DNA from: Vicinamibacterales bacterium
Lineage (GTDB): Bacteria > Acidobacteriota > Vicinamibacteria > Vicinamibacterales > UBA8438
Assembly: GCA_965215105.1 (NCBI GenBank)
Contig: OZ244051.1
Span: 3,074,896 to 3,138,895, forward strand
Direction: 5' to 3'
Length of the DNA: 64,000 nucleotides
The notes under the pieces are model-generated. The model was not told the DNA's origin. It ran no database searches and saw only the letters and a list, made by a program, of their open reading frames with translations. Numbering within the stretch: position 1 is the first letter of the stretch; the number at the start of each line of letters is the position of its first letter. A program made the translations under genes and the position numbers. Below, in pieces: positions 1,555 through 24,728 of this stretch.

Positions 1555-1584
1555 GAGATCCTCTTCCAGCGCGGCGTTCCGAGT

Positions 1585-1613: not shown

Positions 1614-1660
1614 TCTGTTTCAAGAAACGACGTGTCACTCGAGTCCGAACCGACCGGGAG

Positions 1661-2066: not shown

Positions 2067-2294
2067 AACGTCAGCGCCGCCTCTGCGCCACCCCAACGTG
2101 GCAATTCCTGCACCCGTCGGCGCTCGCCACCGGCGTTCCCCGTGCAACTCGGGCCGTTCCGCGTTTGGCCCCGTTCTTGCTCCGTGAAGCACCTCGTCCA
2201 CGGCCTGCCGGCCCCGGGTCGTTCTCGCGCCGCCGAGCACGCCGCACGCCCCGCACGCCGCAGGTGCGGAGTCGGGACGGCACCAGGAGCAGGA

Positions 2295-3320: not shown

Positions 3321-3661
3321 GGCGCCGGCGGCGGGACCCGGCGGCGACGCGGCATCGCCGTCGAACGCGAACGGATCGCGCGTTGGGCGCCCCCGACGAC
3401 AGCTCACTTTTCGACGCGCACCCCCACCGGACCGTTCCCTCTTGCGGCCGGTACGACAACACCGCGGAGCGTGCGGTCGCGGCGCAGCTTCATCGCGGCG
3501 CAGCTTCAATCCGAAACCGGTTCGACAGTCGAGGGAGCTCCGCGGTCGCCCGCTGGTCGTCGGTGCCAGGAGATGAACGAAGCCGGTCGACCGCACGTCC
3601 AAACGGGCACGGAGCAGGAACGAAAACGGGGGCGCGGGGTCCAAACGTCCCAGGGGAAGAG

Positions 3662-6600: not shown

Positions 6601-6976
6601 CGGTTCGGGAGGCGATGCGTTCCCGTGGTTCTTCCGCGAGATGGACGCAGGCGTCCTCGTGGGCGAGCGCACGTGGGGCGGCCTCATCGGCCCCGCCTCG
6701 GGACATCAGCTCATAGACGGCGGCTTCTACACCGCGCCGCCCGGGCGGCTCTACCGAAACGACGGACGGTGGTTCGCGGAAGGTCACGGGGTCGAGCCGG
6801 ACATCGCGGTGGCGGATCACCCCGGCGAGCTGGCCAAGGGGAACGACCCGCAACTCGACGCCGCCGTCGCGGAGCTCATGCGCCGGATCCGGGAGAATCC
6901 TCCGGCCCTGCCCCCGCCGCCCGGTGACGAGCGCCGGGTCGTCACCGATTCCAACGGCGGGAACGAGGACCGTTAG
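3662..6976 (+). CDS. Tricorn protease homologue (S41-type, beta-propeller + PDZ + peptidase), secreted
   Basis: MRYFTATLTLLFSLGATLTWAQ signal peptide. MLRYPDVSETQIAFVYAGDIWVV is a tricorn N-terminal signature. Repeated SPDG propeller motifs and a C-terminal DERWNGGG peptidase region are present. The upstream part of the 3047 ORF is discarded. Confidence 0.85.
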   Translation: MRYFTATLTLLFSLGATLTWAQIDARMLRYPDVSETQIAFVYAGDIWVVTKEGGSARKLSSPPGEESFPRFSPDGAQIAFSGNYNGNNDIYVVPTLGGAPFRITHHPGDDRVLDWTPDGRGVLLASNRRSGLPSFRQIYRVAAEGGQPERLAVPYGEFGALSPDGRRIAYTPETRGFRTWKRYRGGAAPEIWLLDLETLDAENVSDSPANDAQPMWHGDTLYFLSDRGPAQRYNIWAHDLATGSKRQVTTFTDFDITFPAIGPSDLVFQAGGRLFRLDLATERVSAVEVDVVTDLAALVPRTADVANRIASAGISPTGQRAVFEARGEIFTVPARHGAVRNLTHSSGAADRFPAWSPDGRWIASWSDSGGEYELTLHRADGAGEPQVVTALGPGFRYRPFWAPDSTKLAFIDHTQRIYVFDRETGALTEVDRGLHMLHGALAGFELSWSHDSRWVAWSRGLETTNSAVFLFDTEAGERFQVTSGYYNDFRPVFDPAGKHLYYYSNRTLAPVYSDLDATWVYPNATNVVAATLRDDVPSPLAPRNDEEPVAEDDDEAEPGEEAAEEADDDGPGSDGEDDAATTPLDIDVDGFESRAVMLPVEAGNFGRLRAVDGKVVFHRRPHAGGAGDQPSPIVAYDLEEREEQTILPDGDSFEISADGKKLLVSNERSWAIVDVAPGQTLEDRLATNALTMTLDPPAEWRQMFDEVWRTYRDYFYDDDLHGLDWNGLRAQYGGLIDQAVTRWDVNFLIGELIGEVNASHTYVGGGDTETPRRRGVGLLGVDWSLENDAYRIARIVRGAPWDIEDRSPLDEPGVDVDKGDYLLAVNGNPLDPARDPYSAFEGLAGETVLLTVNDRPTVDDAREVVVTTLRSEATLRMRDWIEQNRLRVDDASGGRIGYVYVPNTGVPGQTELVRQFNHQHDKDGLIIDERWNGGGQLPDRFVELMNRETVGHIYFRHGATARHPTITHRGHKAMLINGQAGSGGDAFPWFFREMDAGVLVGERTWGGLIGPASGHQLIDGGFYTAPPGRLYRNDGRWFAEGHGVEPDIAVADHPGELAKGNDPQLDAAVAELMRRIRENPPALPPPPGDERRVVTDSNGGNEDR

Positions 6977-7398
6977 CTGAACGCGGGTCCATGTGCGCAG
7001 GCTGGGGCAGATCCACCTCGCGCCGGGAGTTCGGGTGTCGTTGATTGAGCAGGGATCGCCGGATCCCCCTTGGTCCCTGCCCGGCACGCGTGGATTTGTC
7101 TTGTCCGACCGCGCGGGTGCTCGACAGTACCCTTGCGCCCCTTGCGCCCTCCAAGGTCCCCGGCACGTTGACGTCAACGCACCTCTGCGCCGCCCCGGCG
7201 TGGCAATTCCTGCACCCGCCGGCCCCCGCCACCGGCTCGTCCCATGCAACTCGGGCCGTTCCGCGTTTGGCCCCGTTCTTGCTCCCTGAAGCACCTCGTC
7301 CACGGCCTGCCGGCCCCGGGTCGCCCCCGCGACCCTCCGAGCGCGCCGCACGCCCCGCACGTCTCGGGTGTGGACTCCGGACGTCGCCGGGAGCACGA

Positions 7399-8495
7399 AT
7401 GCAGGACGCCGCCTACAAGCTCTTGTTCTCGCGCCCGCGCATGGTCCACGACCTGCTCGACGGCTTCGCCGCCCGAAGCTGGAGCGGCGTCCTCGACTTC
7501 GAGTCGCTGGCCCCCCTGCCCGCCAGCTTCGTCGGCCGGGAGCTCCAGCAGCGCCACGGCGACCTCATCTGGCGCGTCCGCTTCCGCGACGACCGCTGGC
7601 TCTACCTGGTCCTGCTCCTCGAGTTCCAGTCCAGGAGTCTGTGCCGTGAAACGGCGCGGATTCCTGGAGGGTTGGTTGGGCGCCCAGCGGAGCCGCAGGC
7701 GACGATGGGCGGGCTACCGTCGACCCAGCGATGGCGGTGCGCATCCTGGAGTACACCGCGCTGCTCTACCGGCGGCTGGTCGACCACGACGTGCTCCGAG
7801 AACACGGGGCCCTGCCGCCGGTGCTGCCCGTCGTCCTCTACAACGGCCGGCGGCGGTGGACGGCGCCGGTCGAGGTGACGAACCTGCTGGCGGCGGGGAG
7901 CGAAGTGCTGGCGCCGTACCAGCCGTCGCAGCGATACTATGTTCTGGACGTGGCGCGCGTGGCGGACGCGGACCTGCCGGCGGGCAATCTGGTGTCTGCG
8001 CTCATCGGTCTGGAGAAGACGCGCGACGCGGCGGGCCTGCGCGAGGCGCTGAAGGTGCTGTCCGACCTTCTGCGGAAACAGAAGGACGACGCGTTGACGC
8101 GGGCATTCGTGACGTGGCTGCACCACGGGCTGCGGCATGCGGGCCGGCTGCCGGCGGACGGGGAGGACCCGTTGGCGCAGTTGCAGGAGACGCAGACGAT
8201 GCTGGAAGAGACCGTGCGGGAATGGACGCGTGAATGGCTCGAGCAGGGCCGCGCCCAGGGCATCGAGCAGGGCCGCATCCAGGGCATCGAGCAGGGCCGC
8301 CACGAAGAACGGGCGCTGCTCTGCCGTCTGGCGGCCCGGAAATTCGACGCCGGGGCCGTCGAGGGGCTGGCCGCCGCCCTGGCCGGCGTCACCGACCCGG
8401 ACCGCCTTGCGCGCGTCGGCGACTGGATCATCGAGTGCGCGACGGCGTCGGAGCTGCTGGCCCGCGTCCGCGGCGACAACGGGCCGGGCGGCTGA
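7399..8495 (+). pseudogene. Rpn/YhgA-like nuclease, copy 2, interrupted by an 83-bp insertion
   Basis: MQDAAYKLLFSRPRMVHDLL...LLLEFQS is followed by a frame break. The remainder (MAVRILEYTALLYRR... to GDNGPGG) is in the ORF 7731-8495. Confidence 0.8.
7633..7715 (+). other. 83-bp insertion of unknown origin inside rpn copy 2
   Basis: Absent from copy 1, which reads gagttccagtcc|accgtcgaacc. It contains the hairpin gccgtGAAacggc and the 10-bp palindrome tgggcgccca. Its length is not a multiple of 3. Confidence 0.8.
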
Positions 8496-8977
8496 GGCGC
8501 CGGCGGCGGGGACCCGGCGGCGGCGCGGCATCGGCGTCGAACGCGACCGGATCGCGCGTTTGAGCGCCCCGACATCTTCTCACCTCTCGACGCGCACCCC
8601 TGCCCGACCGTTCCCCCTTGCGGCTTCTCGGACGACAACACCGCGGAGCGAGCGTCGTGGCGCAGCTTCAACCCAACCGGGCCGCTTGACGTCGATCTCC
8701 AGACGGAGCAGCACACCTCGTCGGGCGTGCGGCCCGCTGCTGAACCACGTGCAAGCGTTGGCGTCTCCCGAGAACGCTGTACCCCCGTTCGTGACGACCT
8801 CGACAGCCGGGAACCCGCGCCCGGCGGTCGACGCATTCGTCGTCGCCAACGTCGCTACGGGAGTCTGACCCCGAACTTCGTCTATCATGACGCCCGCGAG
8901 GTCAAGCCGGCGCTCGCCGGGGGCCTTGCGAGGAAGGCGTCTGGCAGTCAGCGCCAACACCGCGGGATGAGGTGCCG

Positions 8978-9082
8978 CCGGGAACGTCATGACCGTTGAT
9001 TCCAAGTCCCGAAGGACCGCCGCCGCACCGGACTTCCACATCGCGCGGTGCTACCGGGAACGTCATGACCGTTGATTCCAAG
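8978..9082 (+). repeat. 29-bp direct repeat (8978-9006 and 9054-9082) duplicating the SNF2 gene start region
   Basis: ccgggaacgtcatgaccgttgattccaag occurs twice, 76 bp apart. Each copy carries an ATG. Confidence 0.9.
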
Positions 9083-12000
9083 GGGCGCGAGCTCTTCATC
9101 GTCGACAACAGCGTCTCCGGCTGGACCGGACTCCGGTACCTGGAGGAGTGGTGCGGCATCGCGAAGGCGTTCGACATCGCGACCGGGTACTTCGAGATCG
9201 GCGCCCTGCTCACCCTCGACGGCAGATGGCAGGGACTCGACAAGATCCGCATCCTGATGGGGGCGGAGACGACCCATCGGACCCGGAAGGCCATTCTCGC
9301 CGCCGTCCGGGCGCAAGCGCTCGACAGGCTCGACGAGAGCATCGAGGAGGACAAGCAGCCGAACCCCTTCCTGCACGGGGTCCCTGCGATCCTCGACGCC
9401 CTCCGCTCCGGGCAGATCGAGTGCCGGGTCTACGACAAGGACAAGTTCCACGCCAAGGCCTACATCACCCACGCCAAGCTCGAGGTAGTGGGCGCCCAGG
9501 CGCTGGTGGGATCCAGCAACTTCACGCCGCCGGGTCTGACGAAGAACGTCGAACTGAACGTCCAGATCCAGAGCGCGCGCGAGGTCGCGCAGCTCCAGGA
9601 GTGGTTCGAGACGCACTGGCACGAAGCGAGCGACGTCACCGAGGCCGTCATCGAGGCGGTCTCGCGCCATACGCACCTGTACTCGCCGTTCGACGTCTGC
9701 GCGAAGGCCCTGCAGCAGTTCTTCCGGGGGCACGAGCTGACCGCGACCGAGTGGGACGAGAGACGGTCGCGCATGTTCCCGCACCTCGACCGCTATCAGA
9801 GGGAGGCGTACTGGGCGCTCATGAAGATCGCCCGGCAGCATCTCGGCGCGTTCCTCTGCGACGGCGTGGGCCTCGGCAAGACGTTCGTCGGTCTGATGCT
9901 GATCGAGCGGCTCGTCCTCCACGAAGGCAAGCGTGTCGCGCTGTTCGCACCGAAGGCAGCCAAGGAGGGAGTATGGGAGCCCCACCTGCGTCAGTGGCTC
10001 CCGCACATCGGCGGCGTCGGCGGTGGCGCGGACTTCAGCAATCTGGCCGTGTTCAGCCACACCGACCTCGGACGAAGGGGGGACTTCCCGGCGCGTTTCC
10101 GACGCATTGCGGAACTCGCCGACGTCGTCGTCATCGACGAGGCGCACCACTTCCGCAACCCCGGCCGCCGGGAGGACCCCGAAAAGGGAATCGAACCGTC
10201 GCGCTACTACCGCCTGTTCGATCTGCTCGACAACGCGGAACGCCCCAAGACCGTGTTCATGCTGACGGCCACGCCCATCAACAACCGCCTGAGCGACTTC
10301 CGCCACATGACCGAGCTCTTCACCCGTCGCGACGAGGCCTACTTCGCGCGCACGATCGGCGTGAACAACCTGCGGGCCCACTTCAACCAGATGGAGAAGA
10401 CACTTCGCAGCCGTGTCGGGCAGGACGCGGCGGACGCCGCGGAGCACATGACCGACGCTCAGGAGATCCTCCTGACCGACGAGATCTTCCGCCAGCTCGT
10501 CGTCCAGCGGAGCCGCGCGTACGCCCGCGAAAGCCAGATTCGCGAGCACGGCAAAGCGACGGCCTTCCCCGAGCGGAAGGACCCCCAGGTGGCGGCGTAC
10601 TCGATCCGCAAGACCTACGGACGGATACTCGACCTGTTCGAGAGGGCCTTCGCGAAGCAGAACCCGCTCTTCGCACTCCCGATGTACTACCCCCTGCATT
10701 GGTACCGGGGCCCGGACAAGAACATCGACGCGTTCGAGGAGAACCGCCAGAAACAGGTGGTCGGCCTCATCCGGACCAACTTTCTCAAGCGCTTCGAGAG
10801 CTCCGTCGCCGCCTTCGAGCTCTCCTGCGACCGCCTGCTCCGGAAGCTGCTCGCCTTCGTCGAGGTCCACAGCGAGAGCGCCGCCGAGAAGAAGCGCCTC
10901 GAGAGGTGGAAAGCACAGAATGCCGAGGTCCTGGGCTACGCCGTCCAGCGCCAGCTCGATCTCTGGGGCGAGGACGACACAGAGGGGGACGACGAAGACA
11001 TCGTTCCCCAGGAGATGCTCGAAGCCGTCGTGCGCCTCGACCGGGCCGAGTACGACGTCGAGGAGATGATGTCCGAGACCTTCCTCGACCTCGACCAGAT
11101 CGCGCAGTTCCTCGACGAGGCGCGGAAGTTCGAGCCGAAGCACGACGACAAGCTCCGGAAGCTCATCCGCCTTCTCAAGTCGAAGACGCTGGCCGACCGG
11201 AAGATCCTGATCTTCACCGAGTTCGCCGACACCGCCCGCTACCTCAAGCGTCACCTGGACTCGGCCGGTATCGAGGGCGTCGAGCAGGTGGACAGCGCCA
11301 CGAAGAAGAACCGTGCAGACGTCATCCAGCGCTTCGCGCCCTACTACAACGGCCTCTCCTCCCCGGAGCTCGCCGAGCACGGCCGCGAGGAGATCCGCGT
11401 CCTGATCTCCACGGACGTCCTCTCCGAGGGTCTCAACCTCCAGGACGCCTCGCGGATGATCAACTACGACATCCACTGGAACCCCGTGCGCCTCATGCAG
11501 CGCATCGGCCGGGTGGACCGGCGCATGAACCCCGAGATCGAGAAGCGGCTCGTCGCCGACCGTCCCGACGCGGCCGCCTCGCGCGGCAAGGTCTGGTTCT
11601 GGAACTTCCTTCCGCCCGAAGAGCTGAACGACATCCTCTCGCTCTACACGCGGGTCACGCAGAAGACGCTGCTGATCTCCGAAACGCTCGGCATCGAGGG
11701 CAAGAAGCTCCTCACTCCCGAGGACGACTTCAAGGCGCTGAAGGAGTTCAATCACGCCTACGAGGGCACGCGCACGGCCGTGGAGGACATGCACCTCGAG
11801 TACCAGGCGCTGCTCCAGGCCGACCCGGAGCTGGAGGCGCGCCTTGCCCGCTTCCCCGGCGCGATCTTCAGCGGCCGCGAGCGCGTGGTGAAGGGCGTGC
11901 GCGGTGTCTTCCTCTGCTACGCGCTCCCCGCCCTCGACAAGGAGAAGAACGAGTTCACCGAGGAGGCCGGCACCACCCGCTGGTACCTCTACGACCTCGA

Positions 12001-12214
12001 CCGCGCTACCATCCTCGACGAACCGGGCGAGATCGTCGCGAGCATCCGCTCGAAGCCCGAGACGCCCCGACGCTGCGCCATGGAAGAGCAGACGCTCCTC
12101 GACGTCCGCAAGCGGATCGAAAAGCACGTCAAGAACAGCTACCTGAAGCGCGTGGATGCCCCGGTCGGCGTCAAGCCGCGACTGCGCTGCTGGATGGAGC
12201 TGAACGAGAGCTGA
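9065..12214 (+). CDS. PLD(HKD) nuclease - SNF2 family helicase fusion
   Basis: FHAKAYITH...GSSNFT is an HKD motif. The SNF2 motifs DGVGLGKT, VVIDEAHHFRN, LTATPINN and NYDIHWNPVRLMQRIGRVDR are present. ATG at 9065 is preferred to the upstream TTG at 8996. Confidence 0.85.
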   Translation: MTVDSKGRELFIVDNSVSGWTGLRYLEEWCGIAKAFDIATGYFEIGALLTLDGRWQGLDKIRILMGAETTHRTRKAILAAVRAQALDRLDESIEEDKQPNPFLHGVPAILDALRSGQIECRVYDKDKFHAKAYITHAKLEVVGAQALVGSSNFTPPGLTKNVELNVQIQSAREVAQLQEWFETHWHEASDVTEAVIEAVSRHTHLYSPFDVCAKALQQFFRGHELTATEWDERRSRMFPHLDRYQREAYWALMKIARQHLGAFLCDGVGLGKTFVGLMLIERLVLHEGKRVALFAPKAAKEGVWEPHLRQWLPHIGGVGGGADFSNLAVFSHTDLGRRGDFPARFRRIAELADVVVIDEAHHFRNPGRREDPEKGIEPSRYYRLFDLLDNAERPKTVFMLTATPINNRLSDFRHMTELFTRRDEAYFARTIGVNNLRAHFNQMEKTLRSRVGQDAADAAEHMTDAQEILLTDEIFRQLVVQRSRAYARESQIREHGKATAFPERKDPQVAAYSIRKTYGRILDLFERAFAKQNPLFALPMYYPLHWYRGPDKNIDAFEENRQKQVVGLIRTNFLKRFESSVAAFELSCDRLLRKLLAFVEVHSESAAEKKRLERWKAQNAEVLGYAVQRQLDLWGEDDTEGDDEDIVPQEMLEAVVRLDRAEYDVEEMMSETFLDLDQIAQFLDEARKFEPKHDDKLRKLIRLLKSKTLADRKILIFTEFADTARYLKRHLDSAGIEGVEQVDSATKKNRADVIQRFAPYYNGLSSPELAEHGREEIRVLISTDVLSEGLNLQDASRMINYDIHWNPVRLMQRIGRVDRRMNPEIEKRLVADRPDAAASRGKVWFWNFLPPEELNDILSLYTRVTQKTLLISETLGIEGKKLLTPEDDFKALKEFNHAYEGTRTAVEDMHLEYQALLQADPELEARLARFPGAIFSGRERVVKGVRGVFLCYALPALDKEKNEFTEEAGTTRWYLYDLDRATILDEPGEIVASIRSKPETPRRCAMEEQTLLDVRKRIEKHVKNSYLKRVDAPVGVKPRLRCWMELNES

Positions 12215-12218
12215 GCCG

Positions 12219-13271
12219 ATGCCGACCGACCACCGCGAACGCCTCGCCGGCATCCGCCGCTTCGATCAACTCGTCGCCTACCTGCGCGACGAGCTCGGCT
12301 GGCCGATCGACTCGGACGACTTCGAGGAAGCGACCTTCGAGTACACGCCGGACGAGCTCGGGATCGACGCGAAGAACGCGGCCAAGATCCAGGAGATCAA
12401 GCGCCTGCGACCCCTCGCACCGGGCCAGCCCTGGGGCATCTTCTTCGTGAAGTTCGAACCGAAGCGCCTGCCCGTGGTGGCGCTGCGCCGCATCCTCGGA
12501 CGGGTGGCGCTCAAGAAGCGCGGCTCCGCCAACCCGTCCGAGCGCCAGGCCTGGGCCGCCGACGACCTGCTGTTCGTGTCGAACTACGGTGAGGGCGACC
12601 AACGGCGGATCGCCTTCGCCCACTTCTCGAAGCCGCGCGACGGCCACGACCTGCCGGCCCTGAAGGTGCTCGGCTGGGACAACCTCGACACGCCGCTCCA
12701 CCTCGACGCCGTAGCCAGCGAGCTGCGGGACCACCTCACTTGGCCCGACGACGAGAGCGACCCCGACGCCTGGCGCGACCACTGGCGCGCCGCGTTCACG
12801 CTGCGCCACCGCGAGGTCATCACCACGTCGAAGCAGCTCTCCGCGCGCCTGGCCGTGCTGGCGCGCGCCATCCGCGACCGCACCCGGACCGCGCTGGCCA
12901 TCGAGACCGAGACCGGCCCCCTCACGAAGCTCATGAACGCGTTCCGGACCGCGCTCGTCCACGACCTCGACGAGGCCGGCTTCGCCGACATGTACGCCCA
13001 GACCATCGCCTACGGCCTGCTCTCGGCCCGCATCACCGACCCCGGCCGGCGCACCGCCGACGACTTCGCCGCCCACCTGCGGACGAACCCCTTTCTCCGG
13101 GAGCTGATGGAGACCTTCCTCCATGTGGGCGGCCGCCGCCGCCCGGCCGGCGGACCCGGCATCGACTTCGACGAGCTGGGCGCCTCGGACGTCGTGGAGC
13201 TCCTCGACCGGGCCAACATGGAGGCCGTCGTCCGCGACTTCGGCGACCGGAACCCCCAGGAAGACCCGGTG
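12219..13271 (+). pseudogene. N-terminal remnant of a type ISP/IIG (PglX/DrmMI-class) N6-adenine DNA methyltransferase; catalytic domain deleted
   Basis: FADMYAQTIAYGLLSARI ... [12 protein letters not shown] ... RNPQEDPV matches the pre-catalytic helical region of this class. The sequence breaks exactly where the IHFYE.../NPPY domain should start. The frame changes at 13272-13275. Confidence 0.65.
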
Positions 13272-13275
13272 CGTG

Positions 13276-14019
13276 TCCGAGGAGGTCTGGGGCTTCCACA
13301 TCGGCGGCTATCAAGTTTGCCACAAATGGCTCAAGGACCGGAAGGGTCGCACGCTCTCGGACGAGGACGTCGTCCAATACCAGAAGATCGTCGTCGCCCT
13401 GAACGAGACCATCCGGATCATGACCGAGATCGATGAAATCATCGAAGCCCACGGCGGCTGGCCCGACGCGTTCCGGGCGGGTGCGCAGGCGGGTGCGCCA
13501 TCGCACGGGACCGCGGAGGTGCTCCCGTTCCGGCCGCGGACGGTCCAGCCCGCGCCGGAGGACCGCTACGTCACCTGCGTGCCCCTCGTCCCACTCAAGG
13601 CCGCCGCCGGCGCCTTCAGCGACCCGCAACACATCGACGATGACGACGTCGAGTGGGTATCCTTGGAGTCCGGCCGTCGCCTGCGCAAGGGTATGTTCGT
13701 CGCCCAGGTCGTCGGCAGGTCCATGGCGCCCGCGGTCCCCGACGGCGCCTGGTGCCTCTTCCGGGCGCCCGTCGAGGGTACGCGCCAAGGCAAGACCGTC
13801 CTCGTCCAGCTCCGCGACGCCGCCGACCCCGAGACCGGACAGCGCTACACCGTCAAGCGCTACGAGAGCCAAAAGGCGAAGGGGGCAACTTCTTGGCATC
13901 ACCAGAAGATCGTCCTCGAGCCCGTCAACCCGGACTTCGAGTCGATCGTGCTCACCGGCGCGGACGAAGACGAGCTGCGGGTGGTCGCAGAACTGGTCGA
14001 GGTGCTTGGAGGCCGATGA
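13276..14019 (+). CDS. Type ISP/IIG C-terminal motif fused to a LexA-like S24 peptidase domain
   Basis: [50 protein letters not shown] is the conserved C-terminal end of the class. It is followed by [13 protein letters not shown] (LexA-like cleavage-site region), [11 protein letters not shown] (Ser at 13720-13722) and YTVKRY (Lys). Internal ATGs near 13420 could give a standalone S24 protein. Confidence 0.6.
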
Positions 14020-17000
14020 GTGGCTCCGGAGCAGCTCGAACCGCGTCTGGAGCTGCTCCGCGAGGAGTACGTCCTCGTTCAGGCGTGGAAGAAGACCGCA
14101 TCCTACATCCGCTACCACAACTGGTTTTCCGACACGCTGGCCCTCGACCGAGCGGCCGTGAACCTGCCAACGTTTCTCGGCGAACTGCGCGAGCGTCTGC
14201 AGGCTCCGGAGACTTGGCGGAACGATCCGTTGCGCATCGTTCCGGCGCCGAAGAGGCAGCACTGGAGAGTGCGGGAAGGTGCGTGGGAGCCCGTCAAGGG
14301 AGCGCCCTCGGCGCGGCTTCGACCGCTCGCCCACGTCAGCTTGGAGGAGCAGGTGGTGGCGACGGCACTGATGCTCTGTCTCGCCGACCGGGTCGAGACT
14401 CGGCAGGGGGATCCGTGGCGGTCGGTACGTGATCCGGAATCGCGAAGGCAGGTGGTTTCCTACGGAAATCGGCTGTTCTGCGACGCCGTCGGTAGCGAAC
14501 TACGCCATCGGTGGGGATCGTCCAAGCTCTACCGAGCCTACTACCAGGACTACCGTACGTTCCTCTCCCGGCCGGAAATCGCGGCCGAGGCGGTACCGGC
14601 AGCGGAGGAAAAGCGTGTCTACGTCGTCCATGCGGATCTTCGGCAGTTCTACGACCGCGTCCGCCCGGATCTGCTTTCCGCAGCCATCGGCCGCGTTCGC
14701 CGCGACGGAGATAATGCCGGATTCTTCTCTCTGGCGGCGTCGGTGCTCGATTGGCGCTGGGATCCGCGTGATGGAAGAGACGTCCGGATCTACGCAGGGC
14801 AGGCGGAGCTGGAGGACTTCACGCGGGTGGCGTTGCCGCAGGGGCTCGTCAGCGCGGGCTTCTTCGCCAACGTCGCGCTCCTTTCGTTCGACGAAGCGCT
14901 GCGCGCGGCGATCGGGACCGAGATCGCTTTCGGGATCCGCTTGGTGGATTCGTGCCGGTACGTCGACGACTTGCGGATCCTCGTTGCCGTTGACCGGAAC
15001 TCCGCCACCTCGTCGGACGACCTTGAGACCGCCGTCTCCAGCGTCTCCAGATGGCTGAGCAGGGTGCTGCAAGAGCATGCGCCCGGTCTCGCGCTGTCCC
15101 CCGAGAAGACCCAGGCCGCAGCGCTTGGAGGCGACGAACGGCCGCTGGTGCGACAGAGCGCGAAGATGAACCGCATCCAGTCGGCGGTGTCGGGGGGATT
15201 CGACGCGCTCGGGGGCGAGGAGATCCTCGACGCCATCCAGGGGCTGATGCGCGCTCAGGAAGCACTCAGCGTCGGCGACGACAGCGGCTGGCGATTTTCG
15301 CCGGTTCCAGACGTCCGCAACGAGACGGTCGCCAGATTCGGCGCTGCCCGATATCGAACCACGTTCCGTTCCATCAGGCCGCTGCTCCAGGACGATGACA
15401 CGCCGGACGAGTCTGAGGTTGGAAGAGCCGATACCGCGGCTGGCGGGCGACTGCGGGTAGCGCGCACGCGGCGGGAGCTGGACGAGGATGCGAGGGCGTT
15501 TGCGCTGGGTCTGATTCAGCGGTGGATCGACGATCCGTCGAACGTCCGCCTGCTTCGGATCGGCCTGGATCTCTGGCCGGACGTGAAGCTGTTGCAGGAA
15601 GTCCTCTCATTGCTTCGTCCGTTCACGGAAACGGGGGGCCGTCGCAACGCCCCGAGGCGCGTCGCTTGGTACTGCCTCGCTGAAGTCCTGCGCGCAGGAG
15701 CCACGGAGACGGGCCTCGTGGCGGACACCGAATCGCTCCCAGCGGGGGTCGACGTGGGTCGCTACCGGGAGGAGCTCCGTAAGGAGGCCAGTCGCCTGGC
15801 GACGTTGCCCTGGCCGACCATTCCCTGGTACCTCCGACAGCAGGCACTGCTGTTCCTTGCCGCGTTCGATCCCGCCGGGGCGCCGGTCGTGCGCACGGGA
15901 AGAGCGCCGGAGACCAAGCACTACCGGGAGCTCATCCTATTCCTGCGCGGTGGACTGCACCCGCGACCGGCCTCGGAATTCGCCACTTTCGCGATCCTGG
16001 CTAGGCGCGCGTTCGTGGGTCGAGCACGCGCCGTCGAGCTGACGCGCCCGGCTCTCAATCCCTCGGAGAAGCGGCAGATCGCCCGGAGGGACCCGAGTTT
16101 CCTTCTCGAACTCATCCACGCGGAGACGCAGGGTCTACTCTTCGACGATCTTCCGGCGCGCGTGCGCGAGGATCTGTGCAGGATTACTGATAGTTCGGGC
16201 GGAGACTCTGGCACCTTGGCCGACGCGGTCCTGCGCTCTCATCCGACCGGCTCACTCCGCAACGAGCTCTCCCTTCTCCGCTTCGGGAGGGCTTTTCTCG
16301 AACAGTGGCGGCAGCAGGAGTCTCCGTCCGAGGTGATCACGCCAGGGCAGGTCAAGCTCAACGTCGCCGAGGACCACGGGGTCCCAGACGTAGAAGGCCT
16401 ACGGATAACGGGGAGTCTGGCCGACCCATCGGGGTCCCTGTACGAAGTGCCCGCATGGTGTGAAGCCGGCGAGCGGTGGCGCTTCCAGCTCGGATTCTTG
16501 CTGCGGTTCATCCTGTCGGGGCAGCCGGATTTCACGCGTCCGGTACGCCGGGCGAGTTGGAGAGAGACCGAATTGGCCTATCGTCCTGCCGAGAACCACT
16601 GGTACCAGCGGCTGTACGGCCTGTACAACGGGCAGCCGGCCTTCGGAGACGACTGGCTTCCGATCACGGACTGGACGGAAGGATTCCTCCTCGCCCTCCT
16701 GCGCTGGCCGCGGTGCCGTGCTTCCGAGGGGTTCCGTTGGGTCGAACAGGGCATCGAAGAGGCGAGGACGCAGATTGGCCGGAGGATCGCCGCCCTCGAG
16801 AAACGTCGCGGCAGCGCTACCTGCGCGTTGATCCTGCCGCTGCCGGCCAAGCGACCGACCGCCACGAACGCGAATCGACCGTTACGCGCCTGCGTGGTCC
16901 AGGCGGCCGTTCCGGCGGCCGACGACTTTCGGCACACCGACCTGGCGCTCAACGAGTCCGCAATTCGGCGAAGACACCGCAATCACCTGTCGGCGGCCCT

Positions 17001-17757
17001 CGCAGCCGTGGAACGCATGCTGGCCCTGCGGGAGACGCACAAGGAAAGCGAAGGGCGGCTCGATTGGCTGATTCTACCCGAGCTTGCCGTCCATCCGAAT
17101 GACGTTCGTACTCATCTGGTTCCTTTCGCACGGGCTCACAGGGCGCTGATCCTCACCGGGCTGACCTATGAGGAGGTTCTGGTGGGGCAACCGCTGGTCA
17201 ACTCAGCTCTGTGGATCATTCCGGAGTGGTCGGACGCCTACGGGCTGCAGATCAGGACTCGCCGTCAGGGGAAGGCGCATCTCGCCCCGAATGAGCAGGC
17301 GTTCAACGGAGCTGGCGCCCGTATCCTGCAGGGCTTTCGGCCCTGCCAGTGGTTGATCGGCTATCCGTGGTCTGACGCGGAGGATGCCCAGCCTGCCTGG
17401 CTGACGGCGGCCGTCTGCTATGACGCGACGGATCTTGGTCTTGCTGCGGATCTCAGGGATGAGTCGGATATACTGGCGATCCCGGCGCTCAACCAAGACG
17501 TCAAGACGTTCGACCAGATGGCCCTGGCGTTGCACTACCACATGTTCCAGCTCGTGGTCGTCGCCAACAACGGGCAGTACGGCGGGAGCAACGCCTATTG
17601 GCCGAGGAAAGATGTTGTTGTCAGGCAGGTCTTCCATACCCATGGACAGCCGCAGGCCTCGATCTCGTTCCTCGAAATCGATGACATCGGCGCATTTCTG
17701 GAGCGCCACGACGGAGCCGACTGGAAGCATCCGCCTGCAGGTCTGAACCGTCGCTGA
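14020..17757 (+). CDS. Reverse transcriptase - nitrilase (C-N hydrolase) fusion, DRT1/UG1-like
   Basis: RT motifs: RLRPLAHVSLEEQVVATALMLCL, VVHADLRQFYDRV, LPQGLVSAGFFANVAL, YVDD (14959-14970) and LSPEKT. Nitrilase triad context: LILPELAV, QGKAHLAP and AAVCYDATD (Cys at 17416-17418). The GTG start directly abuts the upstream TGA (14017-14019). Confidence 0.85.
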   Translation: MAPEQLEPRLELLREEYVLVQAWKKTASYIRYHNWFSDTLALDRAAVNLPTFLGELRERLQAPETWRNDPLRIVPAPKRQHWRVREGAWEPVKGAPSARLRPLAHVSLEEQVVATALMLCLADRVETRQGDPWRSVRDPESRRQVVSYGNRLFCDAVGSELRHRWGSSKLYRAYYQDYRTFLSRPEIAAEAVPAAEEKRVYVVHADLRQFYDRVRPDLLSAAIGRVRRDGDNAGFFSLAASVLDWRWDPRDGRDVRIYAGQAELEDFTRVALPQGLVSAGFFANVALLSFDEALRAAIGTEIAFGIRLVDSCRYVDDLRILVAVDRNSATSSDDLETAVSSVSRWLSRVLQEHAPGLALSPEKTQAAALGGDERPLVRQSAKMNRIQSAVSGGFDALGGEEILDAIQGLMRAQEALSVGDDSGWRFSPVPDVRNETVARFGAARYRTTFRSIRPLLQDDDTPDESEVGRADTAAGGRLRVARTRRELDEDARAFALGLIQRWIDDPSNVRLLRIGLDLWPDVKLLQEVLSLLRPFTETGGRRNAPRRVAWYCLAEVLRAGATETGLVADTESLPAGVDVGRYREELRKEASRLATLPWPTIPWYLRQQALLFLAAFDPAGAPVVRTGRAPETKHYRELILFLRGGLHPRPASEFATFAILARRAFVGRARAVELTRPALNPSEKRQIARRDPSFLLELIHAETQGLLFDDLPARVREDLCRITDSSGGDSGTLADAVLRSHPTGSLRNELSLLRFGRAFLEQWRQQESPSEVITPGQVKLNVAEDHGVPDVEGLRITGSLADPSGSLYEVPAWCEAGERWRFQLGFLLRFILSGQPDFTRPVRRASWRETELAYRPAENHWYQRLYGLYNGQPAFGDDWLPITDWTEGFLLALLRWPRCRASEGFRWVEQGIEEARTQIGRRIAALEKRRGSATCALILPLPAKRPTATNANRPLRACVVQAAVPAADDFRHTDLALNESAIRRRHRNHLSAALAAVERMLALRETHKESEGRLDWLILPELAVHPNDVRTHLVPFARAHRALILTGLTYEEVLVGQPLVNSALWIIPEWSDAYGLQIRTRRQGKAHLAPNEQAFNGAGARILQGFRPCQWLIGYPWSDAEDAQPAWLTAAVCYDATDLGLAADLRDESDILAIPALNQDVKTFDQMALALHYHMFQLVVVANNGQYGGSNAYWPRKDVVVRQVFHTHGQPQASISFLEIDDIGAFLERHDGADWKHPPAGLNRR

Positions 17758-17840
17758 TTGCCCTTGAGGGTCAAGAATGCCACTGTTTTCCACAGCAGGG
17801 GCGTCGCGGGTCTGAACATGAGATCATCGGGAGGTTCGTC

Positions 17841-20800
17841 GTGACAACCTTCGCCGCTGGCGCGCGCCGCTTGCCGCTCCACCACGTCACCATCCGCGTC
17901 CCCTGGCACGACGGGGGCTGGACCGGGAAGGTGTGCGCCCGACCGCTGGACAACTCGAGCTGCCTGATCCTGCCCCGCATCGGCGAGGGCCGGCGCGACG
18001 ACGTGGAGACGCGTTGCGCGGGCCGGCGGCTCGACGAGCTCGACCGCGCCGACCTGCCACCCTGCGTGAGCGAGCGCGTCTCGTTCATGGCGCCCTTCGC
18101 GTTCCCGCGGACGATGACGCACCCTTACACGGAGTTCTACCCCGAGACCTACGGGCACTTCGCACCCACCCCCTTCGTGCAGCCGGCGTACTCCGCTGCC
18201 TGCGTGCCCTTCCGATGGGTGCTGCGCGAGAAGGTCGAGGGGAGCCCCAAGGACGACGAGATCGGGATCGCCGATCGTCTGAAGATCGGCTGGTTGCCCG
18301 AGCGCGAGCCCGAGATCCACAATCACCGGGGCCATCAGGTCGATACCGCCTGGGTCCAGGAGCGCGGGAACCAGCTCGCGCTGCTCGACACCTTCTTCGG
18401 CGCGCTCCGACCCCAGGAGTCGCTCTGCTTCTTCTATGCCAAGCGCACCCCGCTCTCCGAACAGTCCCGACGCGTGATCGTCGGCGTGGGCCGCGTGCTT
18501 TCCGTGGGCGACGCCACGGAGTACGCATACAAGGTCGAGAACCCGCCGCTCCAATGCGTGCTCTGGGAGCGCAACGTTGGCCACTCCGTCCGACCCGGCT
18601 TCGCGGACGGCTTCCTCTTCCCCTACCGGGAGGCGTTGGAGCTCGCCGACCGCGAGAGGGTCGACCCCGAAGAGTTCGTGGCCTTCGCTCCCGACGAGCA
18701 CTTCGACGCCTACTCCTACGGCTCGGAGCTCCTGACCCACGATGGCGCCGTGGCGTCCCTCGTGGCCTGCGCGGCGGCGCTGCACCGGATCCGCGACCGG
18801 ATAGAGGGACCGTGGGACGAGGCGCTCGCCTGGATCGACACGCAGCTCAACCGCCTGTGGAAGGCGCGCGGCGCGTTCCCCGGCCTCGGCTCGGCGCTCT
18901 CCGCGTTCGGCTACGAGTGGGGCTTCCAGCACGGGAGCCTGCTCGCCTACGAGATCGAACTGCTGCGAGAACGAGACGGCGGCGACCCGTGGGTGCTCGT
19001 GGAAGCCGTGATGGATGCACCCGGGAAGCTCGGCGGCCCCGTGGCGAAGCTCCTCACCGACGGTCTGTGCAGGGGCTGGAAGCGCCTCGCCGACGAGCGG
19101 CGGGCCCTGCTCCAGCTCCTCGGCCGTTGCGCCGTCTCGGAGGATCAGGCGCTGCGCTTCTACGACACTACGGCACGGGCGGAGGCCGGCATCGAGGCCT
19201 GCGACGCCGAGTTGCTGCGCAATCCGTACCTCATATTCGAACGCGACCGGCGCGCCGCCGACCCCATCGCCTTCGGCGCGGTGGACCGGGGCCTGTTCCC
19301 GGATGAGGCGGTGCGGGAGCAGTTCCCCGTGCCGAAGCCGAGTTTCATCGAAGACCCGGCCGACGAACGGCGGGTGCGCGCACGCGTCGTGGACCTCCTG
19401 GAACACGCGGCGGGCGAAGGCCACACGCTGCTTCCCAGGAGCTGGGTCATCCGCAGGGCGCGGGAGCACGCGCTCCAGCCGCCGTGCCCGCTCGGCGAGA
19501 ACGTGCTCGACGCCTGCGAGGAGAGCTTCGATCCGGTGATCGCGCGCGTCGCGACGCGCGCGGGCGAGCCCGCCTACCAGGTGGCGCGGCTCGTAGAGTG
19601 CCGCAAGATCATCCGCCGCGAGGTGCTCGGTCGGAAGAGGGGAAAGCCGCACGCGGCCGATCACGAGTGGCGTGGGCTGGTAGACGCGGGGCTCGATGAG
19701 CCGCTGCCCGCGTATCCCGAAGAGCGCGAGCTGGAGAAGCGTGCGCGGCGCGAGAAAGCTACCGCGCTCGAGCAGCTCTTCCGCTCGCGGCTCTCCGTGC
19801 TGATCGGGCCGGCGGGGACGGGCAAGACGACGCTGCTACGGATGCTCTGCTCGCTTCCCGGCCTCGCCGAGAGAGGGCTGATACTCCTCGCCCCCACGGG
19901 CAAGGCCCGCGTGCGACTGGAAGAACAGACCCGCATGCGAGGCGCCGGCCAGACGCTGGCGCAGTTTCTGATCCGGCGGCAGCGCTACGACGGGAAGACC
20001 GGCGCCTACTTTCCCAAGCCCAGGGCGCCTCGCTGCGGTGACTACCGGACCGTGATCGTGGACGAGTGCTCGATGCTCACCGAAGAGCAGCTCGCCGCGC
20101 TGATCGACTCGCTCAGCAACGTCGAGCGGCTCGTGCTCGTCGGCGATCCGCGCCAGCTTCCGCCGATCGGGGCCGGCCGTCCGTTCGTGGACATCGTTCG
20201 AGGGCTCGAGCCGGAGAACGTCGAGTTGGTCTTTCCGCGCTGCGGGCCGGGCTATGCCGAGCTCACGATCTCGCGACGCCACCAGGGCGAGGCCCGGGCC
20301 GACGTGCTCCTGGCATCGCACTTCAGTGGACGGCCGCTCGATCCTGCCGCAGACGCCGTGCTGGACGAGGGCGAGGAAAGAACGGACGGACGACTGCGGC
20401 TCGTGCGCTGGAACCACCCGGAGGAGCTTCAGGAGAAGCTCGTTGCCGAGCTGGTCCAGACCCTCGGGCTCGCCGGACCGGACGACGAACTGGGCTTCGA
20501 GGAATCGCTGGGCGGCGCGCGCCGCGGGGACAACCCGTGGGCCTTCTTCTTCAACCGGTTCGGCGACAACTCGGGAGCCGCCGCGCAGGCGGAAACCTGG
20601 CAGATGCTCTCGCCCCGGCGCGCCGGGCTCGTTGGGGTGGATGCACTGAACCGCACCCTCCAGACCCGGTTCCGGGTGAAGGTTCGCGAGCTCGCCGAGA
20701 CGGAGGGGTGGGGCCGCAAGGTGCCGCGGCCCTTCGGCCCGCAGACGCTCCTCTACGGCGACAAGGTCATCAACGTCATCAACCAGCGCCGGCGCGACGT

Positions 20801-21662
20801 CTGGCCGAAGCCGGCGGACGAGGCCTACCTCGCCAACGGAGACATCGGCATCGTCGTCGGGCAATACAAGTACCAGAAGAGCAAGTTCAGGGGCCTGCCG
20901 CGGAAGCTCGAGGTCGAGTTCGCGGGGCAACTGGGCCCCAAGTACGGGTTCCACCCCGGCGAGTTCGGAGACGAAGGGCGCAACCCGCTCGAGCGGGCCT
21001 ACTGCCTGACGGTGCACAAGACCCAGGGCAGCGAGTTCGGCGTCACCTTCGTCGTGCTCACCAACCCGTGCTGGCTGCTCTCACGCGAGCTCCTGTACAC
21101 GGCGCTGACCCGCCACAAGGACCGGCTGGTCATCCTGCACGAGGGCCCGCTCGTCGAGTATCGCCGCTATGCGGGCAACCAGCACTCGGAGATCGCCCGC
21201 CGCATGACGAACCTCTTTGCGGATCCGTTGCCGCGCGAAGTAGCCGTCGACGCCCGGCAACGCTTCCTCGAGGCAGGGCTCATTCATCGAACCGAGCGCG
21301 GTGACCTCGTGCGCTCGAAGTCGGAGCTGGTCATTGCCGACAAGCTTCACGCCCGCGGGATCGAGTACGCCTACGAGCAGCCTCTCGTCCTGCCCAACGG
21401 TCGCACGCGTTACCCGGACTTCACGATCGCGGATCACGCGCGGGGCGTGACCTTCCACTGGGAGCATCTCGGCATGGTCGACGACCCGGGGTACAGAGCC
21501 CGATGGGAGAGGAAGCGTGCCGAGTACCTGGAGTGCGGAATCGAGCCTCACGAGAACGGCGGGGGCCCGGACGGCACGCTGATCGAGACCCGCGACGAGC
21601 CGGGCGGGGGGCTGGACGCAGCGGCGATCGCGTCGGTGATTGACGAAGTGATTCTGGGTTGA
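17841..21662 (+). CDS. SF1 (RecD/AAA_30-like) helicase with a large unassigned N-terminal region and a C-terminal PD-(D/E)xK (Vsr/DUF559-like) nuclease motif
   Basis: GPAGTGKTT, VIVDECSM, VLVGDPRQLPPIGAG, TVHKTQGSEF and LYTALTRHKDRLVIL are helicase motifs. The C-terminus reads RSKSELVIADKLHARGIEYAYEQPL...YPDFTI...FHWEHLG. GGGAGG lies 6 nt before the GTG at 17841. Confidence 0.8.
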   Translation: MTTFAAGARRLPLHHVTIRVPWHDGGWTGKVCARPLDNSSCLILPRIGEGRRDDVETRCAGRRLDELDRADLPPCVSERVSFMAPFAFPRTMTHPYTEFYPETYGHFAPTPFVQPAYSAACVPFRWVLREKVEGSPKDDEIGIADRLKIGWLPEREPEIHNHRGHQVDTAWVQERGNQLALLDTFFGALRPQESLCFFYAKRTPLSEQSRRVIVGVGRVLSVGDATEYAYKVENPPLQCVLWERNVGHSVRPGFADGFLFPYREALELADRERVDPEEFVAFAPDEHFDAYSYGSELLTHDGAVASLVACAAALHRIRDRIEGPWDEALAWIDTQLNRLWKARGAFPGLGSALSAFGYEWGFQHGSLLAYEIELLRERDGGDPWVLVEAVMDAPGKLGGPVAKLLTDGLCRGWKRLADERRALLQLLGRCAVSEDQALRFYDTTARAEAGIEACDAELLRNPYLIFERDRRAADPIAFGAVDRGLFPDEAVREQFPVPKPSFIEDPADERRVRARVVDLLEHAAGEGHTLLPRSWVIRRAREHALQPPCPLGENVLDACEESFDPVIARVATRAGEPAYQVARLVECRKIIRREVLGRKRGKPHAADHEWRGLVDAGLDEPLPAYPEERELEKRARREKATALEQLFRSRLSVLIGPAGTGKTTLLRMLCSLPGLAERGLILLAPTGKARVRLEEQTRMRGAGQTLAQFLIRRQRYDGKTGAYFPKPRAPRCGDYRTVIVDECSMLTEEQLAALIDSLSNVERLVLVGDPRQLPPIGAGRPFVDIVRGLEPENVELVFPRCGPGYAELTISRRHQGEARADVLLASHFSGRPLDPAADAVLDEGEERTDGRLRLVRWNHPEELQEKLVAELVQTLGLAGPDDELGFEESLGGARRGDNPWAFFFNRFGDNSGAAAQAETWQMLSPRRAGLVGVDALNRTLQTRFRVKVRELAETEGWGRKVPRPFGPQTLLYGDKVINVINQRRRDVWPKPADEAYLANGDIGIVVGQYKYQKSKFRGLPRKLEVEFAGQLGPKYGFHPGEFGDEGRNPLERAYCLTVHKTQGSEFGVTFVVLTNPCWLLSRELLYTALTRHKDRLVILHEGPLVEYRRYAGNQHSEIARRMTNLFADPLPREVAVDARQRFLEAGLIHRTERGDLVRSKSELVIADKLHARGIEYAYEQPLVLPNGRTRYPDFTIADHARGVTFHWEHLGMVDDPGYRARWERKRAEYLECGIEPHENGGGPDGTLIETRDEPGGGLDAAAIASVIDEVILG

Positions 21663-21791
21663 CGCTCCTGCGAACTTCGACGGCGACTCCCAAACGCGGC
21701 CAACTGTGAGGGGCAGTGGACCGATCGGGTGTCGAAGAGCCGAGTCGAGGCGCCGGAGCGATTGACGCGGCGCGAAGTACGGAGGGCACGC

Positions 21792-23882: not shown

Positions 23883-24605
23883 GCCCTGCCGCCGGTGCTG
23901 CCCGTCGTCCTCTACAACGGCCGGCGGCGGTGGACGGCGCCGGTCGAGGTGACGAGCCTGCTGGCGGCGGGGAGCGAAGTGCTGGGGCCGTACCAGCCGT
24001 CGCAGCGATACTATGTCCTGGACGTGGCGCGCGCGGCGGACGCGGACCTGCCCGCCGGCAACTTGGTGTCTGCGCTCATCGGTCTGGAGAAGACGCGCGA
24101 CGCGGCGGGCCTGCGCGAGGCGCTGAAGGTGCTGTCCGACCTTCTGCGGAACAGAAGGACGACGCGTTGACGCAGGCGTTCGTGACGTGGCTGCACCGGG
24201 GGCTGCGGCATGCGGGCCGGCTGCCGGCGGACGGGGAGGACCCGTTGGCGCAGTTGCGGGGGGACGCAGACGATGCTGGAAGACGCCGTGCGGGAATGGA
24301 CGCGTGAATTGCTCGAGCAGGGGCGCGCCGAAGGCATCGAGAAGGGGCGCGCCGAAGGCATGGAAGAGGGCATCGAGAAGGGGCGCGTCCAGGGCATCGA
24401 GCAGGTCCGGCACGAAGAGCGGGCGCTGCTCTGCCGTCTGGCGGCCCGGAAATTCGATGCCGGGGCCGCCGAGGGGCTGGCCGCCGCCCTGGCCGGCGTC
24501 ACCGACCCGGACCGCCTTGCGCGCGTCGGCGACTGGATCATCGAGTGCGCGACGGCGGCCGACCTGCTGGCCCGCGTCCGCGGCGACAGCGGGCCGGGCG
24601 TCTGA
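23883..24605 (+). pseudogene. Rpn/YhgA-like nuclease, copy 3; 5'-truncated with two indels
   Basis: Homology to copy 2 begins abruptly at ALPPVLPVVLYNGRRRW. There is a 1-bp loss in ggaaacag at about 24151 and a 1-bp gain in ttgcgggggg at about 24258. The C-terminal part is in the ORF 24210-24605. Confidence 0.8.
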
Positions 24606-24728
24606 GGGACCAGCGCGCCAGGCGCCTCCCGCGCGTGGGCGCGGCCTGCTCGCCGCCGTCCTCACTGCGGACCGAGAGCACGAATCCCGGCTGGAAGGCG
24701 CCAACGGGAACGGGCGAGGATCGAGACC

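Follow-up and report, generated by a model that had tools for sequence, protein, structure and literature searches.

Introduction

The prefix PDC denotes a 'phage defence candidate'. One such family, PDC-S68, was defined from genes embedded within BREX, DISARM or restriction–modification (RM) systems and is listed as a candidate (bioRxiv 10.1101/2024.01.29.577857, Payne et al.). A second system that bears on the present locus is DRT1, a reverse transcriptase (RT)–nitrilase that acts as a single gene, is held in a dormant filament by protein-primed single-stranded DNA (ssDNA) adducts and requires the superfamily 1B (SF1B) helicase Dda for its triggering by T4 (PMC13275509, a 2026 study); for UG1, earlier work reported a transmembrane protein as the only partner (PMC9226505). 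Here we analyse a PDC-S68 gene that lies directly downstream of a DRT1 gene in a 64,000-nt stretch of a Vicinamibacterales bacterium genome (Acidobacteriota; assembly GCA_965215105.1, contig OZ244051.1, positions 3,074,896 to 3,138,895 of the forward strand), the whole of which is hereafter called the window.

This gene is an intact member of PDC-S68, and we propose that its product probably acts as a self-contained effector against phage or mobile DNA. The self-contained character is argued by the lack of a universal neighbour among 78 loci of the family together with the monocistronic copies found on plasmids. The assignment as an accessory gene of defence type follows from the absence of its island in the same-genus genome G110, its occurrence in one of 251 genomes of the phylum, its wide horizontal spread and its defence neighbours.

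Family identity and domain architecture

The gene and the domains predicted for its product are as follows.

17829-17834, forward strand: Shine-Dalgarno-like GGGAGG, 6 nt 5' of the GTG start (from the sequence)
17841-21662, forward strand: PDC-S68 gene, 1273 aa plus stop, GTG start, open reading frame (ORF) intact
17841-18335, forward strand: N-terminal subdomain a (residues 1-165), with a predicted local distance difference test (pLDDT) of 82-96 in AlphaFold2 (AF2), invariant columns and a possible Cys/His metal site
18336-18740, forward strand: N-terminal subdomain b (residues 166-300), with a helix, the FFYAK/VIVGVGRV beta-hairpin and the W242-E-R..H248 strand (DSSP)
18741-19700, forward strand: helical region (residues 301-620), helix-hairpin-helix (HhH) and winged helix of RecD2 type (hidden Markov model (HMM), Pfam and Foldseek)
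19701-21215, forward strand: SF1B helicase core (residues 621-1125; Pfam AAA_30, AAA_19, SH3_13 and UvrD_C_2, and Foldseek)
Helicase motifs, by residue: Walker A G656-T664; motif Ia APTGKAR 684-690; Walker B D741-E742
Further helicase motifs, by residue: motif III GDxxQLPPI 768-776; SH3 insert ~964-1012; motif V T1057-S1064; motif VI Y1086-R1091
21216-21560, forward strand: probable PD-(D/E)xK-type (Vsr/DUF559-like) nuclease domain (residues 1126-1240; motif, AF2 and weak HMM matches)

The ORF at 17841-21662 is a genuine conserved gene and not a chance reading frame. Its third-position GC of 0.88 matches that of real genes in this window of ~70% GC, and its relatives share both the GGGAGG motif and the GTG start codon. 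At least 574 species-representative genomes of bacteria and archaea carry relatives, and the N-terminal region alone finds matches in 1620 clusters at 50% identity. The PADLOC model PDLC05065 (PDC-S68) aligns with residues 12-1271 of the protein over HMM positions 4-1219 of 1221 at 1506.6 bits, and relatives from Bacillus cereus, Vibrio fluvialis and loci L107 and L111 likewise match the PDC-S68 model. On these profile matches the family is one already catalogued, and the window gene is typical of it.

We aligned 64 N-terminal and 61 C-terminal halves from related loci and modelled both halves of the window protein with AF2. Pfam assigned AAA_30/AAA_19 to residues 638-794, a weak RecD SH3 domain (SH3_13) to 964-1012 and UvrD_C_2 to 1053-1098, and gave no significant match in the window protein before residue 630 or after residue 1100. 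The 675-residue C-terminal model (pLDDT 88) retrieved RecD2 (3gpl, E 1.4e-24), RecD (5ld2_D, 4.5e-24), Dda (3upu, 2.8e-16) and also Pif1 in Foldseek. Walker A and B, motifs Ia, III, V and VI, and the SH3 insert are invariant across 76 sequences, and domain 1A of the helicase has a mean pairwise identity of 0.64. Residues 621-1125 form a complete SF1B motor of the RecD2/Dda class. A 5'->3' polarity is established for RecD2 and Dda, and membership of the SF1B family suggests that PDC-S68 would translocate on ssDNA in the same direction.

The protein has a RecD2-like core, yet it belongs to none of RecD2, Nhi and Hhe, because the RecD2 equivalog TIGR01448 gives 190.9 bits against a curated cut-off of 500, the Nhi model is matched over the P-loop alone (residues 649-772, E 0.005) and a PADLOC scan of the window protein contained no Hhe model among its matches. 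An earlier note, made from the letters of the window, had described a single-polypeptide helicase–nuclease resembling Nhi and Hhe with some 600 unplaceable N-terminal residues. The strings that it quoted were recovered from the translation, both in the N-terminal part (HHVTIRVPWHDGGWTGKVCARPLDNSSCLILPRIGEG at 14-50, FFYAKRTPL at 197-205 and RVIVGVGRV at 211-219) and in the C-terminal part (SKSE at 1159-1162, PDF at 1192-1194 and WEH at 1207-1209). Its RecD-type SF1 helicase stands, its nuclease is upheld as probable on the basis of motif, predicted secondary structure and weak HMM matches, and its likeness to Nhi and Hhe extends to the shared logic but not to membership. The unplaceable region shrinks to residues 1 to ~300, since residues ~300-620 resemble the HhH/winged-helix region that RecD2 enzymes carry before the motor.

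Several matches document this resemblance to RecD2: in BFVD, Foldseek of the 630-residue N-terminal model ranked a RecD2 protein with an HhH domain first (E 3.7e-3, 274 columns), Pfam HHH_RecD2 is weakly matched by 25 of the 64 family members, and the alignment with the TIGR01448 RecD2 HMM begins at residue 506. Against the PDB, the same model retrieved winged-helix proteins and the RecD2 N-region among the best 50 matches listed, none of them below E 0.1.

The conserved N-terminal domain

The N-terminal 630 residues are modelled with a mean pLDDT of 91 and a predicted template modelling score of 0.87, and residues 1-300 fold confidently (pLDDT ~90). This first part of the protein gave no match in Pfam (for the window protein and 64 members), NCBIfam, PHROGs, PADLOC or PDB sequences, and sequence searches returned only noise (NDUF_B12) before residue ~430. 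In Foldseek searches of PDB and BFVD with the 630-residue model, residues 1-300 were without a counterpart among the best 50 matches listed. A search for the domain outside this architecture, limited to short proteins, recovered fragments of PDC-S68 itself and nothing else; other architectures therefore do not seem to carry it. Two short, unannotated contigs from human faeces labelled 'Bacteriophage sp.' (MT839248.1 and MT837260.1; H23 and H24) encode proteins 27-28% identical to the N-terminal domain.

Conservation in this domain is high, with 12-15% of columns invariant and mean pairwise identities of 0.49 for residues 1-175 and 0.59 for residues 176-300; subdomain b is the most conserved portion of the N-terminal half. 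The domain is thus about as conserved as the nuclease (0.60) and helicase domain 1A (0.64) and is under strong purifying selection. The invariant residues of subdomain a are H15, VPWHD 20-24, W27, G29, C32, P35, N38, C41, E78, H94 and W126, those elsewhere in the domain are N177, Y199, K201, R211, W242, H248 and R251, and C75 is nearly invariant. Such a pattern fits either an enzymatic role or recognition of an invariant ligand, in which a Cys/His metal site may take part, and does not fit a sensor that evolves fast to follow phage proteins. With conservation at this level, the ligand is unlikely to be a variable phage protein.

The C-terminal nuclease candidate

The C-terminal domain has a mean pairwise identity of 0.60. 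Invariant in the alignments are S1159, K1160 and E1162; P1192, D1193 and F1194; W1207, E1208, H1209 and G1211; and K1225, which lies in the last helix. Both the sequence in which these residues follow one another and their spacing resemble those of a Vsr/DUF559-like PD-(D/E)xK nuclease. In the AF2 model the core of residues 1126-1240 runs alpha-beta-beta-beta-alpha, which fits the secondary-structure order of PD-(D/E)xK enzymes. Profile matches point weakly in the same direction: PHROG 29037 'endonuclease' matches the C-terminal domain at E 1.4e-4, Pfam TPD is matched by 18 of the 61 members (best E 0.002), Uma2 reaches 0.065 and Vsr 0.11, and the PADLOC model PDC-S69 matches the window protein at E 9e-5. 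An hhalign comparison with DUF559 set the motifs in register with a non-significant P of 0.35. Thus the motif from which a nuclease had been proposed consists of invariant E...PD...E-H residues, without a significant fold or profile match, and from sequence and model we regard residues 1126-1240 as a probable Vsr/DUF559-like PD-(D/E)xK nuclease.

Distribution and genomic island

Among 251 sampled genomes of the phylum, scanned with the other PADLOC sub-model, PDLC05066, in search of divergent sub-families, the PDC-S68 family was present in one, that of the window, and the other matches were housekeeping RecD2 proteins of ~730 aa. Copies 74-90% identical to the window protein are spread over Acidobacteriota, Binatia, Thermodesulfobacteriota, Alpha- and Gammaproteobacteria, Planctomycetota and Chloroflexota; archaeal copies are about 67% and 43% identical; and the protein tree departs from taxonomy. 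Homologues also reside on large plasmids of B. cereus (by DISARM and an integrase), Rhizobium phaseoli (by a NACHT protein) and V. fluvialis, where they are monocistronic and surrounded by long intergenic spaces. This distribution bears the marks of a defence-type accessory gene that moves horizontally. Several stops, frameshifts or insertions occur in the PDC-S68 copies of loci L017, L024, L041, L046, L047, L071, L074, L077 and L153, with those of L071 and L077 interrupted by several kb; the family decays often.

In the window the gene lies within a strain-specific island, whose other main features are listed here.

6977-21787, unstranded: strain-specific island of 14.8 kb (blastn against the same-genus genome G110)
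8996-12214: PLD-SNF2 gene, still open
12219-14019: remnant of a Type ISP-like methyltransferase (MTase) gene, with the N-terminal ~350 codons at 12219-~13270
14020-17757, forward strand: Drt1a (DRT1 RT-nitrilase; PADLOC Drt1a, 1233 bits), directly upstream of PDC-S68
17749-17817, forward strand: 69-nt insertion, with the 9-bp direct repeat ggtctgaac at 17740-17748 and 17809-17817

The island sits between a tricorn protease gene and a cyclase gene and runs from an Rpn/YhgA-like element through the PLD-SNF2 gene, a deleted Type ISP-like MTase-S24 gene and Drt1a to PDC-S68. By blastn it is missing at the syntenic site of G110, where the flanks are contiguous and the tricorn protease gene abuts the cyclase gene. 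The defence context that had been proposed for the gene is therefore borne out, its neighbours being defence genes in an accessory island.

The MTase gene of the window is internally deleted and frameshifted. In another frame, 13123-14019 retains the last ~50 residues of a Type_ISP_C specificity domain, which run on into a LexA-like S24 peptidase domain; intact versions are ~1125-1300 aa long (L005, 727-4233; L026, 3927-7301), and ~2.4 kb has been deleted in the window. A 242-aa ORF at 13433-14161 was set aside as an out-of-frame artefact. A repeated element that encodes a YhgA/Rpn-like 'Transposase_31' protein is present in the window as three copies or fragments (2237-3363, 7341-8539 and 23883-24607); all match one G110 locus, and one forms the left end of the island. 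G110 (L174/L175), compared with window positions 5533-6977, carries two copies of the 3'-terminal 1.4 kb of the tricorn protease gene, the second of which abuts the island site; this duplication may be a recombination scar.

Neighbouring genes across the family

Clustering of ORFs across 78 PDC-S68 loci identified no neighbour common to all, and most members of the family stand alone. The commonest partners are a PLD-SNF2 helicase–nuclease and a large Type ISP-like adenine MTase that has a specificity domain and a C-terminal LexA-like S24 peptidase domain, which together look like a split Type ISP restriction system. One or both of these lie upstream on the same strand in ~30 of the 114 PDC-S68-ascertained loci that have at least 2.5 kb of upstream sequence, and in five loci the MTase ends 18-50 nt 5' of the PDC-S68 start. 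Type I or Type III MTases adjoin PDC-S68 in other loci. The defence neighbours seen comprise restriction MTases, PLD-SNF2, DISARM, NACHT and DRT1.

The slot held by Drt1a in the window is filled in two loci by a LeoA-like gene (L001, 5497-7980; L017, 5641-7980), the 828-aa product of which has a weak match to LeoA, a dynamin-like GTPase; the gene ends 20 nt before the PDC-S68 start. Locus L107 combines the same three families in another order, with a PDC-S68 33% identical to that of the window placed divergently upstream of Drt1a and a Type ISP-like MTase downstream.

838-4473 (reverse strand), 6064-9735 (forward strand) and 9827-13453 (forward strand): the genes of L107

Association with DRT1

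Drt1a of the window keeps the YVDD motif and the nitrilase E-K-C residues. The Drt1a stop and the PDC-S68 start overlap as GTGA in relatives; in this window only, the 69-nt insertion alters the last Drt1a residues and parts the Drt1a stop from the PDC-S68 start. The suggestion of co-occurrence with RT-nitrilase genes proved real. When loci were ascertained through Drt1a, PDC-S68 or an N-terminal remnant of it was directly downstream in 19 of 71 informative loci; when they were ascertained through PDC-S68, Drt1a or a remnant was directly upstream in 10 of the 78 loci of the first sample, and Drt1a was present in ~15 of 119 loci across samples. These same frequencies (19/71 and ~15/119) show that co-occurrence is not obligate.

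Five of the 19 Drt1a-ascertained pairs (L108, L111, L119, L120 and L147) contain a PDC-S68 only 48% identical to that of the window, which forms a separate, well-supported clade, here called clade B. The PDC-S68 proteins of clade B are 82-91% identical to one another and their Drt1a partners are 58-80% identical and scattered over the Drt1a tree, from which we conclude that the two lineages have been re-paired. An unbiased sample around clade B had Drt1a in 5 of 55 loci. Gene order in linked pairs is always Drt1a then PDC-S68, with a junction that is either a GTGA/ATGA overlap or a spacer of 10-19 nt. Read from these junctions and trees, a subset of PDC-S68 is translationally coupled to Drt1a through a junction that has outlived repeated exchange of partners. 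Locus L164 has a PDLC05066 member (4-3081; 1437 bits) 2.9 kb upstream of a Drt1a (6049-9651) only 51% identical to that of the window, and is a further independent case of both families in one neighbourhood.

The possibility that linked Drt1a proteins have lost their own effector was ruled out, as all RT and nitrilase catalytic residues are kept. A 784-aa ORF after Drt1a in L115 and L091 was rejected as an antisense artefact. No report of a DRT1-coupled host helicase–nuclease of the Dda class was found in the literature searched.

Discussion

PDC-S68 genes encode a predicted SF1B motor flanked by two conserved domains, and the proposal that they are probably self-contained effectors implies the following course of events. 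The protein may load onto ssDNA or onto the 5'-tailed ends of invading or replicating foreign DNA, its SF1B motor would drive ATP-dependent translocation in the 5'->3' direction and the tethered predicted nuclease would cut the DNA. The N-terminal domain could gate or target this activity by recognising something in nucleic acids that does not vary, for example a DNA end or structure, or a modified base. In the window, PDC-S68 is the last gene of a horizontally acquired defence operon that comprised PLD-SNF2, the now-deleted MTase-S24, DRT1 and PDC-S68.

Several observations weigh against this proposal. The position of the canonical (D/E)xK lysine, two residues after E1208, is occupied by a leucine (L1210), which leaves K1160 or K1225, both invariant, to serve as the catalytic lysine. 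A PDB profile search with the nuclease domain gave no match, and Foldseek of the C-terminal model had no nuclease fold among the matches listed, all of these slots being taken by helicases. The trigger is a guess, because the N-terminal domain is without an assignable function. Several relatives are pseudogenes, and selection is therefore not uniform. Finally, a full-text literature search for the name PDC-S68 returned no paper, and the defining preprint lists the family only as a candidate.

A confounder of any defence reading is the resemblance of the RecD2-like core to true repair helicases, which could indicate a housekeeping or element-maintenance enzyme, either a RecD2 paralogue or an AddAB-like end processor, with no immune role. 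The occurrence of some copies on large plasmids, for which plasmid functions are possible, is consistent with such a role. However, the RecD2 equivalog score (191 bits) is far from its cut-off (500), genomes of the phylum have a separate RecD2 of ~730 aa and PDC-S68 in one of 251 cases, and a same-genus genome lacks the gene at the syntenic site. The scatter of the gene over lineages reflects horizontal transfer and its neighbours are defence genes, so that we consider a housekeeping or element-maintenance role very improbable. A modification-dependent, Type IV-like restriction enzyme is a somewhat less remote but still improbable explanation, in which an EVE/PUA-like reader, formed by the latter half of the N-terminal domain, would bind, for example, N6-methyladenine or hypermodified cytosine and so license the helicase–nuclease on modified foreign DNA. 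Residues 166-317 are predicted to run through beta, helix, beta-hairpin, beta, helix, beta and helix, an order that we read as that of EVE, and hhalign picks out the FFYAK/VIVGVGRV hairpin and with greedy extension sets W171, N177, this hairpin and W242 opposite the EVE motifs W..RN, FYHS/VGIAEV and W. The frequent location of the gene inside methylation-based systems and the high N-terminal conservation, which suits a small invariant ligand, are also in keeping with a reader. The hhalign score of 18.9 (P 0.03) was obtained with an EVE profile built from 30 genomes, but it was equalled by two of 23 decoy windows from real proteins, and the reversed EVE profile scored 18.5. Pfam scans of 64 members contained no EVE, ASCH or SRA match, the EVE-like part had no sequence match in the PDB, Foldseek listed no PUA-like structure among its best 50 matches, and the comparison demands an insertion of 145 residues (20-165). 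The sensor or modified-base reader raised in the earlier note, the profile score of which is no better than that of decoys, therefore stays speculative.

The arrangement with DRT1 raises the alternative that, in the coupled lineages at least, PDC-S68 works together with DRT1; there, a host Dda/RecD2-class helicase–nuclease made from the same mRNA would strip, trim or load on the DRT1 adducts and serve as a built-in activator or a second effector. The 19 of 71 Drt1a loci with PDC-S68 or a remnant directly 3', the recurrence of the stop-start overlap or a spacer of 10-19 nt in two PDC-S68 clades as far apart as 48% identity, and the partner re-assortment seen in clade B (82-91% against 58-80% identity) all speak for a functional tie. 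The pair also occurs without restriction genes, the biology of DRT1, with its dormant ssDNA adducts and need for Dda (PMC13275509), offers a role for such a helicase, and the earlier report of a UG1 partner is limited to a transmembrane protein (PMC9226505). Set against this are the low frequency of Drt1a in PDC-S68-ascertained loci (~15 of 119, and 5 of 55 in the clade-B sample), the absence of PDC-S68 beside most Drt1a genes, the single-gene function of DRT1 (PMC13275509) and the full set of catalytic residues in linked Drt1a proteins. A LeoA-like GTPase gene (L001, L017) or the MTase itself can take the place upstream of PDC-S68, and intact PDC-S68 is found beside Drt1a remnants (L016), as is intact Drt1a beside PDC-S68 remnants (L091, L106, L117). 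PDC-S68 and Drt1a are often carried by one and the same Type ISP-like operon, and this alone could account for their adjacency; shared carriage on this restriction operon explains much of it. A functional partnership is thus rather unlikely, and the coupling of a host Dda-class helicase–nuclease to DRT1 is a suggestive lead. The same doubt attaches to a more elaborate version, taken as a whole, in which Drt1a and PDC-S68 would form a two-gene module in an ssDNA-centred operon (PLD-SNF2, MTase-S24, DRT1 and PDC-S68), the helicase–nuclease would act on or load from the DRT1 ssDNA adducts and thereby replace or amplify the phage helicase signal, and the N-terminal domain of ~300 residues would read this signal with a new fold.

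Our analysis adds to the catalogue entry for PDC-S68 a domain map, a set of residues to mutate and the boundaries of the island, and reduces the part without detectable relatives to ~300 residues. The association of the family with DRT1 and with a split Type ISP-like operon is also quantified here and tested phylogenetically. A host Dda-class helicase–nuclease wired to DRT1 bears on how DRT1 is triggered; if instead DRT1 and PDC-S68 are independent, the family remains a single-gene defence candidate with an orphan domain.

Comparison with known systems

RecD2 of Deinococcus radiodurans (PDB 3gpl/3e1s), the best structural match, shares with PDC-S68 the SF1B motor, the SH3 insert, the HhH N-region and all helicase motifs. 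PDC-S68 differs from it in the addition of ~300 N-terminal residues and a nuclease-like C-terminal domain of ~150 residues and, unlike the RecD2 core gene, is patchy and horizontally transferred. Nhi and Hhe likewise combine an SF1 helicase and a nuclease in one polypeptide and occur in defence islands, but the helicase of PDC-S68 is of RecD type and not Upf1-like, and both the domain order and the N-terminal domain differ; the architecture of Hhe is DUF4011, Upf1-like AAA_11/AAA_12, Vsr and DUF3320, whereas the Pfam domains of PDC-S68 are the RecD-type AAA_30/UvrD_C_2. The Vsr, DUF559 and Uma2 nucleases resemble the C-terminal domain in the series alpha (S-K-S-E), beta, beta (PDF), beta (W-E-H-x-G), alpha, and the acids line up with T-x-x-E...DF...E-x-D-G of DUF559, although PDC-S68 is without the lysine two residues after E1208 and the profile comparison gives P 0.35.

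With the T4 Dda/DRT1 axis PDC-S68 shares a helicase core of the Dda class (3upu, 2.8e-16), coupled in this lineage to Drt1a. Dda, in contrast, is a phage protein of ~440 aa without a nuclease or N-terminal domain, and most copies of PDC-S68 and Drt1a are unpaired. No feature distinguishes the window gene from the PADLOC family PDC-S68 itself, in which all relatives examined have the same architecture and the RM/DISARM-attached context is the same as that of the window gene.

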